A stretch of 64,000 nt of DNA from an uncultured Candidatus Saccharimonas sp. (GCA_943358095.1 CALRGT010000004.1:1997-65996); one strand, 5' to 3'; shown: positions 2,988 to 10,069, counted from the first letter of the stretch. A program made the numbers and translations. Notes: a model not told the origin generated them from the sequence alone.

Positions 2988-3620
2988 CTATCTTTTTAAT
3001 TCATTTTCGACATATTCTTCGTGCGCCTGTATCACAACTCTAGAGATGCTATGAGGATGAGGGACATAAGAAAATTGAGGAGACACTGTCTCGCCGGCGG
3101 TTTCGATTAATAAGTTTCCATAATGAAACAATCGCGGCAACACACCTTTTTGGGTCACGGTTACATCCTGTATATTCCCGATTCCTGATTGAGTGACTAC
3201 TCTGTTAAATAGACTCTTGTAGACTACTTCCGCAATTTTTTCGTTAGTAATGAATATCGAGCTACTCCTATATATAAAAGCGGCAATCGAAGTCCCAACA
3301 AACATAGAAATAACTAATACAGCTACAATTGCTATGACAATACCGCCCATGGCTGTGCTGCTAATATTAAGACCTAGGTTAACTAAAAATGAGCTCGACA
3401 AGGTCATTATAGCTACTATCAAAATAGCTGCAGTAATAAATCCGCCCGTCAACCAAATTCCAATAACCCCAATTGGGTGTTTATGAACTTCTGCTAAAAT
3501 CGTTTCATCGTCATCAAACTCAACATATTTAAACAATCGCCGGCCAAGGGGCGACAACTGCTTGCACGCCTCAATTTTGTGAGGAGACATAGTATATTCA
3601 TTATCTTTTTTGACAACCAT
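2988..3620 (-). CDS. membrane protein, possibly bacterial PH (YdbS/YdbT-like) domain
   Basis: 210 aa. Two long TM helices are followed by a soluble segment (ITNEKI...GNLLIETAGE) that resembles bPH_2 topology. Pattern-level call only. Confidence 0.45.
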   Translation of the reverse strand: MVVKKDNEYTMSPHKIEACKQLSPLGRRLFKYVEFDDDETILAEVHKHPIGVIGIWLTGGFITAAILIVAIMTLSSSFLVNLGLNISSTAMGGIVIAIVAVLVISMFVGTSIAAFIYRSSSIFITNEKIAEVVYKSLFNRVVTQSGIGNIQDVTVTQKGVLPRLFHYGNLLIETAGETVSPQFSYVPHPHSISRVVIQAHEEYVENELKR

Positions 3621-3628
3621 TACGCTTA

Positions 3629-4660
3629 TTATAACAGTTCGGACTGTTTACGCTTATCGGTTTTGCCGAGATGCTTATAAGCCTTGGACGTTACTTTGCG
3701 ACCACGGGGCGTACGCTCCAATAGTCCAATTTGTAACAGATACGGTTCGATAAAATCTTCAATTGTAGTTGCCTCATCACCAAGAATAGCAGCCAACGTA
3801 TTAAGTCCAACTGGCCCACCGTCATGCAAGTCTATGATTGTCGTTAGTAGCAATCTATCGGCTGGATCAAGACCAATGGCGTCAACTTCTAGTAATTTTA
3901 ACGCCTTTTCAGTTTGAGTCATATCGATAATACCGTCACCGTTAATATCGGCGTAGTCACGAACTCTCTTCAACAATCTGTTAGCTATACGAGGAGTTAA
4001 ACGAGCGCGAGTAGACAGAGTGTCGGCAGCCTGCTTATCGATTTTGGAACCCAGTATTGATGCTGAGCGAGTCACTATTTGTGCAATCTCACTTGGGTCA
4101 TAAAATTCTAGACGATGAATCATACCGAACCTATCTCGTAATGGCGCAGCTAGTGCTCCAGTCCTTGTCGTAGCTCCAATTAATGTAAACTTTGGCAAGT
4201 CCAGTCGTAGGCTTTTTGCGCTAGGCCCCTTGCCCAACATAATATCAATCGCGTAATCTTCCATAGCACTGTATAAAACTTCTTCTACGCTACGATTCAA
4301 TCTGTGAATTTCATCAATAAATAAAATGTCACCGTCTTGCAAGTTCGTAAGCAAGCTCGCTAAATCAGCCGCACGGTCTATCGCAGGCCCGCTAGTGATT
4401 CTTATCTGCGCACCCATCTCGTTAGCAATAACGCTCGCCATCGTTGTCTTGCCTAGTCCAGGAGGGCCGTAGAGCAAGACATGATCTATTGGCTCTTCGC
4501 GCTTCTTGGCTGCTGCAATAGCCAGCTTCAAGTTAGTTTTGATGCGCTCTTGACCTATCATATCGGCAAAAGTTTTTGGCCTTAACGTTACTTCAATTAA
4601 TGCGTCGTCGTCGTTGTCGTCAGCCGTAACTTGAGTATTAATAATTCGTTCAATCGCCAT
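3629..4660 (-). CDS. ruvB: Holliday junction branch migration helicase RuvB
   Basis: 343 aa with Walker [10 protein letters not shown] and Walker B FIDEIH. Typical RuvB length and position after ruvA. Confidence 0.95.
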
Positions 4661-6456: not shown

Positions 6457-7923
6457 TTATATTTCTCCGCCTACGACTTGTTTTATATCTGTAATTATAC
6501 CACTGCTTGTCTTAATTTTATGCCATAATATTATAACTAACATAATCATTCCGCTGTACATCAACACCATTTGCCATACGGTTATTGACTGCTTCACTAA
6601 TGCTCTCGGCAATCTAGACAATAAAGACACCACATCTAACATATAGGTCAAAGATAGCCTCGACGGCATAGCCAGCCAGCCCGACATAAAAGGCACGAAC
6701 ATTCCAGCCAAACCAGCAACCAGACATAAGGACATCGCTATCGGAACTAGCGGTACCACCAACACATTGGCTAGCAATGCTACAGCCGAAAATTGTCCAA
6801 ATATATACATAATTATTGGCATAGTCATTATCTGAGCAGCAGAAGTCTCGATAATTAACGTCATTAATATTTTAGGTTGCCTACTTTTAAATACCCTTTT
6901 AGTTATTAGCGGTGCCAGAACTAATATTCCAAAAAAAGCTAGAAAAGATAAATACCAACCGATGTCCGACCATAGATATATTGGATAAACTCCGGCCGTG
7001 ATTACTGCAGCCAATAATATCAAAACTATAGGGCGAAATGTTCTGCCGTAATACCAAGCCCACAAACTAAGAGTACTTACAATTGCCGCTCGGACTATAG
7101 AAGCGCTGAAGCCTGTGAATAGCAAGAAAATTCCTATCAAAAGTAACGATGCGACTGTACTCTGATATTTTGAACGCTTTCTGAGCAACTTCCTGACGGC
7201 TCGCATTATTATTGTTAGATTATATCCAGACACTGCGACTACGTGAGTCAAGCCAACTGCCGCTAACTGCAGGCTAACAGATTTTGGTATCGTGCTGCGC
7301 TGACCGATCAACAATCCAAGACCAAAAGATGCAGCCGGCTCAGGCAATGCCGACTGCATTCCAGCCTCAAAACGGCGACGAATTACTTCAATTAAAGAGT
7401 CAGATTTTTCGATAACTTTTATGCTCGCAAATGATAGACTAGCCTGACGTGGTCCACGAGTTGGATATAATTTTGCACTAACCTGCACAATATCGCCCTT
7501 ATAAACCATTGGCTCGCCAAAACCCTTAACACCTATCTTGCCAACCAAGTCTATGCGATAAGGTTCAATAACTTTAATTTGACCTAAATCAAAACTAATT
7601 TGAGATTTATCTCCGTAGACTGCATCGCTATCAGCTACACCCACAACAACTACATTATTTTTATATAAATTATTGTAATTATCTAGCAGCGACATATATG
7701 CACTGCCTCGCCACCAACCGATAGACAACCCAAGTAAAATTAAAGGAACAGCAAACATAACTCTTGCTCTGCGCAGGGTTATTGTTATCAATAATAAGCT
7801 AACCGCTAGCCACCAATGTTGAAATTCAATTTTAGTTCGAGCCAGTCCTAGTCCGACCAATACTGCCGTCAAAAATACGGCTATTAAAGTCGTTCGCCGA
7901 AACTTATATTTATAACTAGTCAC
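6457..7923 (-). CDS. comEC: ComEC/Rec2 family DNA-uptake channel (no beta-lactamase-like C-terminal domain)
   Basis: 488 aa, polytopic, with an N-terminal OB-like region followed by the competence membrane domain. Confidence 0.75.
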   Translation of the reverse strand: MTSYKYKFRRTTLIAVFLTAVLVGLGLARTKIEFQHWWLAVSLLLITITLRRARVMFAVPLILLGLSIGWWRGSAYMSLLDNYNNLYKNNVVVVGVADSDAVYGDKSQISFDLGQIKVIEPYRIDLVGKIGVKGFGEPMVYKGDIVQVSAKLYPTRGPRQASLSFASIKVIEKSDSLIEVIRRRFEAGMQSALPEPAASFGLGLLIGQRSTIPKSVSLQLAAVGLTHVVAVSGYNLTIIMRAVRKLLRKRSKYQSTVASLLLIGIFLLFTGFSASIVRAAIVSTLSLWAWYYGRTFRPIVLILLAAVITAGVYPIYLWSDIGWYLSFLAFFGILVLAPLITKRVFKSRQPKILMTLIIETSAAQIMTMPIIMYIFGQFSAVALLANVLVVPLVPIAMSLCLVAGLAGMFVPFMSGWLAMPSRLSLTYMLDVVSLLSRLPRALVKQSITVWQMVLMYSGMIMLVIILWHKIKTSSGIITDIKQVVGGEI

Positions 7924-8112
7924 ATATCAAAGATAGTTGACGTTAAATCAGATTAAAATTACTAATGCTTCCGATGCTATGCTAATTCAGCTTATTGTCA
8001 TTTATTAGCACGGTATTTTGTGAAAATCCTAATATGTAGCAGCAGATATATACTCCCCGCCCTGAACGCCGGTTAACTCAGTGGTTCGTTGAGTTCAAGT
8101 CAGTGGAACAAT

Positions 8113-8147
8113 TCCAAGAAAAAAGACCTACCTTTGGCAGATCTTTT
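8113..8147 (-). terminator. intrinsic terminator after the tRNA-Lys-derived element
   Basis: Minus strand AAAAGATCTGCC-AAA-GGTAGGTCTTTT forms a 12-bp stem with 2 G-U pairs, running into TTTTTTCTT. Confidence 0.55.
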
Positions 8148-8151
8148 ATCT

Positions 8152-8227
8152 TGGAGGGCCCAGTGAGACAGCGTCCGGCTGCGCGCGGGCTAACTCACGA
8201 TGCCGTAAGTTCAAATCTATGGGCTCC
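8152..8227 (-). pseudogene. 76-nt tRNA-Lys-derived tRNA-like element (D/anticodon arms replaced, T-loop expanded)
   Basis: Compared with tRNA-Lys at 9263-9339, the last 18 nt are identical, the T-stem 5' strand TCGTGAGTT is identical, and the 5' acceptor strand plus U8A9 matches 10 of 11. The middle is 16 unrelated nt, and a 23-nt GC-rich insert sits in the T-loop. Confidence 0.65.
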
Positions 8228-8265
8228 AAATTTAGAACCCCTCTTTCGAGGGGTTCTAAATTTGG
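8226..8265 (-). terminator. 18-bp perfect hairpin downstream of the 8321-8824 gene
   Basis: CCAAATTTAGAACCCCTC-TTTC-GAGGGGTTCTAAATTTGG. It abuts a 9-nt copy of the tRNA-Lys 3' end at 8263-8271. Confidence 0.6.
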
Positions 8266-8320
8266 AGGGCCATTGTGTACGCTATTACAACTATTTTGAA
8301 AATCTGCAAGCATACTGAGA

Positions 8321-8824
8321 CTACGCTTTTATCTTGGATGTCGTGTTTTTAGGTTCGTGCGCTTTGACAAAACGATGATAGCCCAAGTACAGCACTGTAA
8401 CTAAGCCAACAGTGACCACAATAAATACGTACTTACTATTCTCCGACGCGAAACCGCGACCTAGGCTATATAACAAGACGAATAAACCACCTAACATAAC
8501 TCCGTCTGCCATTACTTTGATTTTATTCTCATATACCAAACTTACCGCAAGAAGAACAACTGCAGCGATTAAAGCTATTATTGATACATTGCGGTTATAG
8601 GGACGCATATCTTTATTATGCTGTTCCATTTTGATATCAAAGGCCCTTTGTGTGGCGAGTTCATCGGTTGTTGGTTCTTTGCTGAGCGTATTAAGTACTA
8701 CCGGAAACTCAGGCGCCTTGGGTCCTGGATAAAATGTATTTATACCTACACCAATGAAGATTGCTATTAGCAGGCCCAGAAAGAAAGTGTAGACTAGCTT
8801 AAGAATTTTATTGTCTTCTTTCAT
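8321..8824 (-). CDS. hypothetical membrane protein (about 4 TM)
   Basis: 167-aa ORF with hydrophobic helices at the N-terminus and in the C-terminal half. No motif. Confidence 0.55.
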   Translation of the reverse strand: MKEDNKILKLVYTFFLGLLIAIFIGVGINTFYPGPKAPEFPVVLNTLSKEPTTDELATQRAFDIKMEQHNKDMRPYNRNVSIIALIAAVVLLAVSLVYENKIKVMADGVMLGGLFVLLYSLGRGFASENSKYVFIVVTVGLVTVLYLGYHRFVKAHEPKNTTSKIKA

Positions 8825-8871
8825 AAAACCTCCTGGTTACGTTACTTATATTATACTCCTTTCATGCCATC

Positions 8872-8906
8872 ACTATATAAATAAATGCCCCTAAATAGGG
8901 GCATTT
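8872..8906 (-). terminator. intrinsic terminator after the DUF1059-like gene
   Basis: AAATGCCCCT-ATTT-AGGGGCATTT on the minus strand, followed by TTATTTAT. Confidence 0.55.
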
Positions 8907-8958
8907 AGAATAAGCGGTATTGGAGGGACGTATGTATCGCTGTTGCAACTATTATTCG

Positions 8959-9189
8959 TTACGCGTCTTCTAGCGAGTCAAAACTATTTTCAAATTTTTT
9001 GTACCAGGCTTGCTGATTTTCAGGACTCCAAGCCATCATCTCTTCCATTGCTTTTTTATGTGCTTCATCGCCGGCTTGAACCTTTTGCATTACGTGATTT
9101 CTGCTATTTTCACCCATTTCTGCAGATGTTTCACCGGTTATTACTTCGTCGCAAGCCCCAGCAAGATTGTTACACGTTGATTTCTTCAT
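8959..9189 (-). CDS. small DUF1059-like protein
   Basis: 76 aa. The N-terminus MKKSTCNNLAGACDEVITGETSAEM fits the C-x(6-7)-CD...GET pattern I associate with DUF1059. The opposite-strand ORF 8943-9191 is judged a shadow. Confidence 0.5.
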   Translation of the reverse strand: MKKSTCNNLAGACDEVITGETSAEMGENSRNHVMQKVQAGDEAHKKAMEEMMAWSPENQQAWYKKFENSFDSLEDA

Positions 9190-9218
9190 AATTAATCTCC
9201 TTCAAAAACATTATACAT

Positions 9219-9245
9219 CAAAAAACAGAGGCAAATTACCTCTGT
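9219..9245 (-). terminator. intrinsic terminator after tRNA-Lys
   Basis: Minus strand ACAGAGG-TAATTTG-CCTCTGT followed by TTTTTTGAT. Confidence 0.65.
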
Positions 9246-9262
9246 TTTAAGCATAAGCTGTA

Positions 9263-9339
9263 TGGAGGGCCCAGTGAGACTTGAACTCACGACACCCTGC
9301 TTAAAAGGCAGGTGCTCTAACCAGCTGAGCTATGGGCCC
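9263..9339 (-). tRNA. tRNA-Lys (anticodon UUU), CCA encoded
   Basis: Manual cloverleaf: acceptor GGGCCCA/TGGGCCC, D arm GCTC-AGCTGGTTA-GAGC, anticodon arm CCTGC-CTTTTAA-GCAGG, T arm GTGAG-TTCAAGT-CTCAC. Confidence 0.9.
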
Positions 9340-9574
9340 CTATTACGGGGTGGTTGATTGTTAAAATTGAGTTCGTCTATTAGACGAATCTTACTCAGCT
9401 GATTAGAGCACCAAGGTGCACATAATTATTTTTGTCCTTAGCCGTGAACGGCTTGGACGCCAGCTGAGCTATGGGCCCCTATATTGGGCAATAGTTATTG
9501 TTACAATTACAATAATATCAATTTAACACCTTATATTATCTCGATTTATAGCAAAAAGTCAATGTTTTAACAGA

Positions 9575-10069
9575 TTACTTGTGCTTCTTTTTGTGAGTTG
9601 GGTGCGGTTGTTTGTGGGTTGATTTTAAGAATATAATGCTAACAAAAAGCCCAAAAGCAACTATGAATCCTTGCATGTTTTCAAGAGTAGCCCACATTTG
9701 GGTGCTGGTGATGTTTGTTTTTGTTGATCCAGCAAATAGCGGAACAACTGACAATGCGGTAAGTAGTCCAACAGCAATAGCGGGAAGTACATTTAGCATT
9801 GCTTTTGATCCTTTAGAGCTTTTGCGTAACAGAATTGCAGCAATAAATGCCGGCAACACTACTAGCGATATATTAAGCGCCTCCTCTGCCAACATTCCTT
9901 GATTAGGAACTGTCGATTTCATTACCAGAGTCAAGTCGCCAATAACAAACATTCTAAGCACAATTCCCGCACATAAGACCAGAAATACTACCGACGCACT
10001 AGTCCGAATAACAATCAGAAACATTGTAGTGAGGCCTGTAATAAGGCCAAGAATTATCAGAGCATTCAT
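9575..10069 (-). CDS. hypothetical polytopic membrane protein
   Basis: 164 aa with about 5 TM helices and a basic C-terminal tail (HKQPHPTHKKKHK). Confidence 0.5.
   Translation of the reverse strand: MNALIILGLITGLTTMFLIVIRTSASVVFLVLCAGIVLRMFVIGDLTLVMKSTVPNQGMLAEEALNISLVVLPAFIAAILLRKSSKGSKAMLNVLPAIAVGLLTALSVVPLFAGSTKTNITSTQMWATLENMQGFIVAFGLFVSIIFLKSTHKQPHPTHKKKHK

Follow-up and report, generated by a model that had tools for sequence, protein, structure and literature searches.

Partial tRNAs that remain as attachment-site remnants, and the piling up of successive elements at one tRNA gene, are established phenomena, exemplified by the tycheposons (10.1101/2020.12.28.424599; PMC9897764), and fragments derived from integration can mimic part of a tRNA, some of them being missing from the mature tRNA pool (PMC9897764). 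Here we analyze a 64,000-nt stretch, hereafter the window, of the chromosome of an uncultured Candidatus Saccharimonas sp. (Saccharibacteria/TM7; GCA_943358095.1, CALRGT010000004.1:1997-65996), in which a 76-nt element derived from tRNA-Lys (8152-8227, minus strand) lies between an intact tRNA-Lys(UUU) gene and comEC. A first-pass annotation had read this element as an acceptor/T-stem minihelix retained by selection. We consider it likely, instead, that the element is a product of DNA-level recombination at the tRNA-Lys 3' end, that is, an attachment-site duplicate within a cassette array, and most likely not an RNA gene. In the literature on Saccharibacteria and Patescibacteria searched for tRNA-Lys, cassettes, integrons and hotspots, the general framework was found, and no description of the array reported here.

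Structure of the tRNA-Lys-derived element

The minus-strand sequence given for the element proved exact on re-reading, and its derivation from tRNA-Lys was confirmed. Its last 18 nt, GTCTCACTGGGCCCTCCA (8152-8169, minus strand), comprise the T-stem 3' strand, the acceptor 3' strand, the discriminator and the CCA, and match at 18 of 18 positions the 3' end of the intact tRNA-Lys(UUU) gene with encoded CCA (9263-9339, minus strand; called by ARAGORN and scoring 72.3 bits with the Rfam tRNA model). The window contains two occurrences of a 17-mer from the tRNA 3' end where 0.05 would be expected, and none of 100 shuffles reached two. Being a non-random feature, the exact 18-nt copy agrees with the earlier opinion that the element is not the outcome of random decay. 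The T-stem 5' strand, TCGTGAGTT (8192-8200, minus strand), is identical to tRNA nt 47-55 (9/9; 31/3000 shuffles), and the GC-rich interruption of the T-loop, 22-23 nt long, is also present; it corresponds to the 22-nt insert AGCCCGCGCGCAGCCGGACGCT (8170-8191, minus strand), which lies inside a 44-nt block that is 95% identical in a related locus (L005).

The 5' half of the element calls for a different reading. The supposed 5' acceptor strand, GGAGCCCATAG, does match GGGGCCCATAG at 10 of 11 positions when the G preceding tRNA position 1 is counted, but it is really a segment of the 3' end copied in inverted orientation and, together with the 16 nt that had been described as unrelated to the tRNA, it forms a reverse-complement copy of the last 32 nt of tRNA-Lys. 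Aligned end to end with the reverse complement of those 32 nt, TGGAGCCCATAGATTTGAACTTACGGCA (8201-8228, minus strand) yields 25 matches, 3 mismatches and 4 gapped positions (0/5000 shuffles), and the direct match of the element to the tRNA 5' end is just 8 nt long (GCCCATAG; 181/5000 shuffles). The palindromic hexamer GGGCCC reads the same on both strands, so that the 3' end, copied in inverted orientation from the T-arm through the acceptor 3' strand to the CCA, mimics a 5' acceptor strand, and the apparent keeping of both acceptor strands is thus an inverted repeat. The inverted match extends into TGGA opposite TCCA, for which reason the predicted fold pairs the 5' end with the discriminator and the CCA.

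The element forms part of a 111-bp module that contains no gene (8152-8262) and consists of a palindromic hairpin followed by the 76-nt element. After the palindrome comes the inverted 3' copy, which the trinucleotide GCA separates from the direct T-stem 5' copy, and the GC-rich insert and the exact 18-nt 3' end complete the module. The palindrome (8228-8262) constitutes a left end resembling a bidirectional terminator (region fold z=-9.3), with perfect 20-bp arms (8224-8243 and 8248-8267) that reach into CTCCA/TGGAG. Pairing between the inverted copy and the directly repeated tRNA nt 47-55 gives the hairpin AACTTACG/CGTGAGTT. The downstream terminator reported previously does exist, as a hairpin plus T-run (8113-8155), but it is not private to the element, since the same terminator follows an unrelated cassette in a close strain (L001), the gene of which we take, by reading of its sequence, to be of Nudix type; the hairpin itself (8113-8151, minus strand) belongs to the conserved flank. 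Beyond it lies an older, decayed second copy of the module core, CTGACTTGAACTCAACGAACCACTGAGTTAACCGGCGTTCAGGGCGG (8053-8106, minus strand; 25 invariant columns in alignment A3), which retains the inverted/direct hairpin (TTGAACTCA...TGAGTTA..CCGGCG..CAG) and a GC-rich part homologous to the insert block, the tRNA 3' end being gone. Under stringent local alignment, the similarity between the two copies in the window is marginal (156/5000 shuffles).

Two further observations concern the same segment. An exact 13-nt repeat, TCCAAGATAAAAG, is found at the junction of module and flank (8143-8155) and in the last codons of a 167-aa open reading frame (ORF) nearby (8326-8338), and it may be a secondary junction or a chance occurrence. 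A coding role was dropped for the ORFs that overlap the element (8146-8313, minus strand; 8103-8318, plus strand), which are ruled out by a 1-nt indel between the window copy and that of a second related locus (L021).

Cassette arrays downstream of tRNA-Lys genes

The tRNA-Lys(UUU) 3' end, ...GGGCCCTCCA, is the first junction and the anchor of an array in which the window reads, in order, tRNA-Lys, a cassette with a 76-aa ORF, a cassette with the 167-aa ORF, the module, the conserved flank and comEC (6457-7923, minus strand), the conserved gene that by synteny closes the variable region. All array units end in ...CC(T/N)CCA, and the module and both upstream cassettes have ...CCCTCCA on both sides, the exact 18-nt repeat forming the second such junction of the module. 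Cassette 1 (8921-9262, minus strand) comprises a terminator (9222-9248), a -10-like box between the terminator hairpin and the ORF, the 76-aa ORF (8959-9189) and the end motif TAGTTGCAACAGCGATACATACGTCCCTCCA (8921-8951); cassette 2 (8263-8920, minus strand) comprises a terminator (8882-8907), the 167-aa ORF, coding for a membrane protein (8321-8824), and the end motif TAGTTGTAATAGCGTACACAATGGCCCTCCA (8263-8293). A hidden Markov model (HMM) of the junction, built from 12 cassette ends, matches these two motifs (E=1.2e-14 and E=1.1e-10, respectively) and finds no site elsewhere in the 64-kb window. Non-seed sites were recovered in L012 (four), L032/33, L028-30 and L040, and all matches, seed and non-seed, lie on the tRNA-Lys strand wherever the locus includes tRNA-Lys, and between ORFs wherever the surrounding sequence was read. 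The cassette-end motif so defined is AGTTGCAAYAGC, followed by 17-19 nt and then by CCTCCA.

Two metagenome-assembled genomes (MAGs) assigned to Saccharimonas/Saccharibacteria, L001 and L002, encode ComEC proteins 99% and 95% identical to that of the window, 14 others standing at 37-60%; the contigs of ComEC relatives at 95-96% end short of the tRNA. In L002, the tRNA-CCA is directly joined to the terminator and the decayed core, with neither cassette nor element. In L001, the tRNA-CCA is followed by the presumed Nudix-type cassette, which ends in ...ATACATACGTCCCTCCA, and then by AGAAAAAAGATCTGCC..., the same flank that follows the element in the window, and a 500-aa ORF. In L021, a metagenome contig, the tRNA-CCA is followed by the AATTTAGAACCCC... 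hairpin and by an element 95% identical over 120 nt, which ends in -CCA and precedes TACTAG...; behind this module come at least three cassettes (two bPH_2 membrane genes together in the TACTAG... unit, a racemase and a 104-aa ORF) with ...CC(T/N)CCA ends, and then further variable DNA. A fourth locus, L031, which encodes a 167-aa protein 99% identical to that of cassette 2, has the same layout as the window. A scan of metagenomes with GAGTTAGCCCGCGCGNAGCC retrieved L021 as the one true relative, the four other matches representing one unrelated GC-rich sequence, present four times, that matches by chance. The window core itself encodes a bPH_2-domain membrane protein (2988-3620, minus strand), a family shared with the two L021 cassette genes located behind the element.

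Hence, the module occupies the first position in L021 and the third in the window: its start, AATTTAGAACC, follows the CCA of the tRNA in the former and the CCA of cassette 2 in the latter, while the flank AGA(T/A)AAAAGATCTGCC follows the CCA of the module in the window and that of the cassette in L001. Every presence/absence breakpoint among close strains falls exactly after CCA, and the sequence common to both sides of the junctions amounts to only ~6-9 nt, which is too short for homologous recombination and typical of site-specific recombination, toward which we infer that these junctions point. Close strains thus gain, lose and re-order units, and an element that is present, absent or shifted among strains with 95-99% identical ComEC behaves as a recombination module rather than as a conserved gene. 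Two marks of an att-type partial-tRNA repeat are found here: the tRNA 3' segment recurs exactly and in direct orientation past an intact gene, and the intervening DNA is absent or different across L002, L001, L021 and L031, its breakpoints coinciding with the repeat.

In other lineages, small genes that lie past either tRNA-Lys are likewise set apart by this junction motif, and arrays following the CCA of tRNA-Lys(UUU) or tRNA-Lys(CUU) were observed in at least five divergent Saccharibacteria lineages among the fetched loci. In L034, where the array follows tRNA-Lys(CUU), most gene junctions carry ...GGCCCTCCA immediately followed by A(T/G)A..., and the array genes include GyrI-like, NUDIX, SET, AAA-kinase and rhodopsin genes and a homologue of the 167-aa protein. 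An exact look-up of the 167-aa protein of the window returned no record, and it has 430 homologues, of which those with 85% and 82% identity are located first and second after tRNA-Lys(CUU), with different neighbours. Cassette 2 of the window ends in TGGCCCTCCA, a CUU-type 3' end, which suggests an exchange of cassettes between the UUU and CUU arrays. Type-1 rhodopsin genes are located inside tRNA-Lys(CUU) arrays in both L032 (7766-8494) and L034 (6865-7593), the latter being followed by the cassette-end motif, so that these Saccharibacteria may carry the capacity for light harvesting as a mobile cassette trait.

Gene-less stretches of 130-240 nt follow tRNA-Lys(UUU) and its terminator in L009, L012, L038 and L039. 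The last 16-21 nt of each reproduce exactly the 3' end of its own tRNA (types CTCACTGGG, CCCGCTGGG, CCCACTGGG and CCCACCGGG); further cassettes come next in L012 and L039, and a terminator in the others. In L005, the 44-nt core of the window is found at 95% identity, with divergence after CTCACTGGG. This last contig (JAYVTZ010000002.1) is titled as a Burkholderiaceae MAG and is probably mis-binned, because it is syntenic with Saccharibacteria (tRNA-Lys, ComEC, YebC). An inverted copy of the last 35 nt of the resident tRNA occurs 35-67 nt downstream of it in 7 of 18 loci (L002, L005, L007, L008, L009, L021 and L039; 0-6/2000 shuffles) and is not significant in the 11 others. These copies track the T-arm sequence of the resident tRNA (GTGAG, CCCGG and GTGGG types) and, as read from the sequences, the inverted copy is usually followed by a direct one of the T-stem 5' strand, with which it forms a hairpin; the acceptor complement seen in the window element is absent in L005, L009 and L012. 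L012 (about 3330-3350) and L038 share an 18-nt block, GCAGAAGTTTACTTCGAG, which reads GCAGGAATTCATTCCGAG in L009, with two double changes that keep a small stem, and the gene-less modules of these three loci possibly contain a conserved small hairpin. Their three-sequence consensus fold, a small GCAG-stem-CGAG hairpin, has a weak total energy of -8.4 kcal/mol with a covariation term of -0.22. In L007, the island downstream of tRNA-Lys harbors several GC-rich hairpins and, at about 4075-4100 (plus strand), a fragment resembling the 3' end of a different tRNA or of a tmRNA (GTTCGAGTCCTCACCGGGCGCC).

As for the wider setting, the minus strand of the window encodes DnaJ, a Zn-protease, RimK, a 164-aa ORF, tRNA-Lys(UUU), ~1.3 kb of small features, ComEC, YebC, RuvC and RuvA, in that order. 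The 164-aa product has no Pfam match and is membrane-like by sequence; look-ups with it and with its 98% relative gave matches on 1-kb contigs only. Upstream of the tRNA lies a unit of ~139 bp (9341-9482, minus strand) in which tRNA nt 1-19 are repeated directly (9460-9478) and nt 11-29 in inverted orientation (9394-9412), along with a GC hairpin. It is missing from L002 and L021, and at least two further tandem copies are found in L001. Its counterparts lie at 3223-3501 in L001 and 3525-3591 in L005, an analogous unit precedes tRNA-Lys(CUU) in L034 (1461-1560), and its arrangement follows a direct-hairpin-inverted logic, like the 3' side of the tRNA. Lastly, L028 (10670-11299), L029 and L030, from a lineage with 65% ComEC identity, carry an IS200/IS605-type Y1 transposase gene between ruvC and ruvA that the window lacks.

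Possible mechanism and alternative explanations

If the element is a duplicated attachment site, a site-specific recombinase, probably of the tyrosine type and encoded elsewhere, would act in trans, with a crossover within or next to the CCTCCA core. Each integration would leave the incoming unit between two copies of this core, like attL/attR partial-tRNA repeats, and the exact tRNA 3' copy of the module would provide a second attachment site, probably usable for insertion; cassettes are found behind the module in L021 and ahead of it in the window. The module palindrome would terminate transcription in both directions, and the inverted T-arm copies might stem from snap-back template switching at the palindromic terminator, or serve as inverted half-sites of the recombinase or as a folded single-strand site.

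Several observations weigh against this interpretation. No integrase, recombinase or transposase gene was found in any inspected array or, by Pfam, among 50 ORFs of the window and the array genes of L021, nor an integrase in the gene lists of L028-L040. Recombination is deduced from comparative structure only. The cassette-end motif, moreover, is reliably tRNA-like over its last 9-14 nt only; the idea that cassette ends mimic the whole tRNA 3' half is unsupported, since the HMM aligns true tRNAs over their last 10-14 nt only, and cassette ends are better described as an NCCA core plus a motif of their own, AGTTGCAAYAGC. The core in L005 is 95% identical although ComEC is just 57% identical, implying either transfer or constraint. 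Finally, a standard attR requires neither an inverted copy nor a T-stem 5' copy, and the recurrence of this architecture across lineages, where it tracks the resident tRNA, hints at a function or mechanism beyond a simple scar.

The most probable of the alternatives, though we regard it as unlikely, is that the module is a functional part of the cassette system and acts as a fold-back platform or guide, whether as an attI-like pad with inverted and direct sites, as a folded single-stranded DNA site or as a structured RNA that pairs with the tRNA gene. The placement of inverted T-arm copies just past the tRNA terminator in 7 of 18 loci, their correspondence with the tRNA of each lineage and their usual association with a direct copy in a hairpin would all fit such a role, as would the survival of the hairpin as the sole part of old copies, the two double changes between L012/L038 and L009, the fold of the L009 module (z=-4.0; about -2 in L012 and L038) and the insertion of cassettes after the module in L021. 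Nevertheless, these comparisons involve three to seven sequences only, L012 and L038 have no significant inverted copy, and the consensus fold is weak. In alignment A3, 85% of the cells of the inverted/direct hairpin are paired, but its six inner pairs are invariant and hence uninformative either way. No recombinase was found in the arrays or window ORFs, and snap-back replication errors at a palindromic terminator could yield the same pattern without any function.

The element could also be a duplicate tRNA-Lys gene, arisen by ordinary tandem or convergent duplication and eroding by mutation without site-specific recombination, a scenario that we deem improbable. The 73 nt from TGGAG to GGGCCC approach the length of a tRNA, both ends are tRNA-like and an older, more decayed copy adjoins the element. 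Erosion, however, does not give a perfect 18-nt end beside a scrambled interior, and it cannot account for a 5' half that repeats the 3' half in reverse complement. In its middle, the element does not resemble the tRNA reverse complement (2669/3000 shuffles), the unit possesses cassette-type CCA junctions and shifts position between strains, and analogous modules elsewhere, at 130-240 nt, are not tRNA-sized. Related proposals were also discarded. An inverted tRNA pseudogene spanning the whole element is rejected because the second half lacks similarity to the tRNA reverse complement, and the notion that the inverted copy marks an ancestral position of tRNA-Lys on the opposite strand, next to comEC, is rejected because L008 and L009, where the tRNA is in the other orientation, carry the same inverted copy after the terminator. 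The module does have inverted ends, as would a miniature inverted-repeat transposable element, but all its copies, in the window as in every fetched locus, are confined to this site.

Slightly less probable still is the functional tRNA-like RNA of the first-pass annotation, in which a transcribed minihelix would be processed by RNase P, RNase Z or the CCA-adding enzyme, or would act as a decoy or mimic. The sequence can be drawn with a T stem of 5 pairs and an acceptor-like stem of 7 pairs with one A-C mismatch, the CCA is encoded, a terminator lies downstream, the L021 copy folds at z=-3.0 and the 44-nt core is conserved at 95% in L005. Against this, ARAGORN calls just the intact gene at 9263-9339 in this region, and Rfam, applied at the gathering threshold to the window and six related loci and at E<=10 to positions 7900-9600, gives no tRNA match at 8152-8227 even at the relaxed cutoff; the modules of the six other loci are likewise uncalled. 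Matches to Rfam microRNA, CRISPR direct-repeat and plastid untranslated-region families were set aside as hairpin artefacts, and only real tRNAs scored. No cloverleaf with D, anticodon and T arms above threshold is formed, nor is a minihelix with a 7-bp acceptor, a free NCCA and a 7-nt T loop: in the minimum-energy fold (z=-1.18 for the window copy), GGA of the inverted 5' strand pairs with the UCC of the discriminator and CCA, the acceptor stem has the A-C mismatch, and the T loop is replaced by ~26 nt with a hairpin of their own, with C56 changed to A (sequence read against standard tRNA numbering). A promoter scan found no promoter-like site between the preceding hairpin and the element, and the hairpin immediately upstream is strong.

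Selection on the two stems is unsupported as well. In alignment A3, pairing of the minihelix holds in 76.8% of cells, and shuffled data reach 75.7% (218/500); there is one double change in 56 cells, and half of the acceptor cells are gaps. The T-stem 3' and acceptor 3' strands are missing in 3 of 6 copies, namely the older ones (window 8053-8106, L001 and L002), L005, L009 and L012 have no acceptor stem, and the whole element is missing from the strains with 99% and 95% identical ComEC. The claim that the minihelix was selected as a substrate of tRNA-processing enzymes is hence not supported, its 5' strand being an inverted copy and its pairing unconserved. A chance resemblance to tRNA-Lys, finally, has nothing in its favor beyond the shortness of the single blocks and is refuted by the shuffle tests and by the same element in L021 and L031.

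Relationship to integrative elements and integrons

Taken alone, the element is a case for caution, in which an apparently selected tRNA minihelix is better explained as the duplicate of a recombination site. Its array context is of greater interest, for arrays are re-assorted between near-identical strains without an integrase nearby and carry rhodopsin, NUDIX, SET-domain, kinase-like and membrane-protein genes. As a tentative and more far-reaching proposal, which we hold to be possible but rather doubtful, Saccharibacteria might have a dedicated cassette-capture system at tRNA-Lys(UUU) and tRNA-Lys(CUU), in which a recombinase encoded elsewhere would place AGTTGCAAYAGC...NCCA cassettes behind the CCA of the tRNA, with the fold-back module as an active landing pad or a folded single-strand or guide-like site, not a scar. 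To our knowledge, this lineage otherwise shows few mobile elements, and a dedicated recombinase, should it exist, would explain the flexible gene pool of these reduced-genome episymbionts. Why inverted T-arm copies recur is a mechanistic question concrete enough to be tested.

Functional tRNA genes and minihelix substrates resemble the element in their acceptor-like stem, T-stem and encoded CCA, and differ from it in that the element lacks a D arm, an anticodon arm and a 7-nt T loop, has its CCA paired and is scored by no model. The juxtaposition of inverted and direct target-like copies a few nucleotides apart recalls the attP of the CTX phage, with its two inverted dif-like sites, and the bottom strand of integron attC sites, and by analogy a single-stranded form of the module would rebuild a duplex mimicking the T-arm region of the tRNA gene. 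The parallel is architectural only, no involvement of Xer/dif, single-stranded intermediate or phage having been found. Scans of viral contigs with the element core and the tRNA 3' 18-mer gave no match, and with the cassette-end pattern gave two chance matches inside a coding region, so no phage or provirus bearing this att sequence was found in them.

With the integrative elements bounded by partial-tRNA attL/attR repeats, such as genomic islands, arrays of integrative and conjugative, integrative and mobilizable or cis-mobilizable elements (ICE/IME/CIME), and the tycheposons of Prochlorococcus, the locus shares an exact tRNA 3' copy downstream of the intact gene, variation among close strains in the DNA between copies, and an outward displacement of older units by successive insertions, with degenerate copies remaining. 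In contrast to those elements, the units described here are single genes of 0.3-1.5 kb or the gene-less 111 bp, without integrase, replication or transfer genes, their ends bear a motif of their own (AGTTGCAAYAGC, 17-19 nt, CCTCCA), and an inverted tRNA copy stands beside the direct one.

Integrons provide the other close parallel. The anchor here is the 3' end of a tRNA gene instead of attI, and no IntI was found; the junctions, checked by reading only, show neither the R''/R' boxes of attC (RYYYAAC ... GTTRRRY) nor an obvious imperfect palindrome, and the left end of most cassettes has a terminator of its own and a -10-like box. In the remaining respects the arrays are alike: co-directional single-gene cassettes each have a conserved recombination-type end motif, gene-less cassettes occur among them, order and content differ between close strains and, as in clusters of attC sites lacking an integron-integrase (CALINs), the array has no adjacent integrase. 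If a dedicated recombinase does exist, these loci would represent an integron-like system with a tRNA end as its attachment site, a counterpart of integrons among ultra-small episymbionts that are naturally competent.

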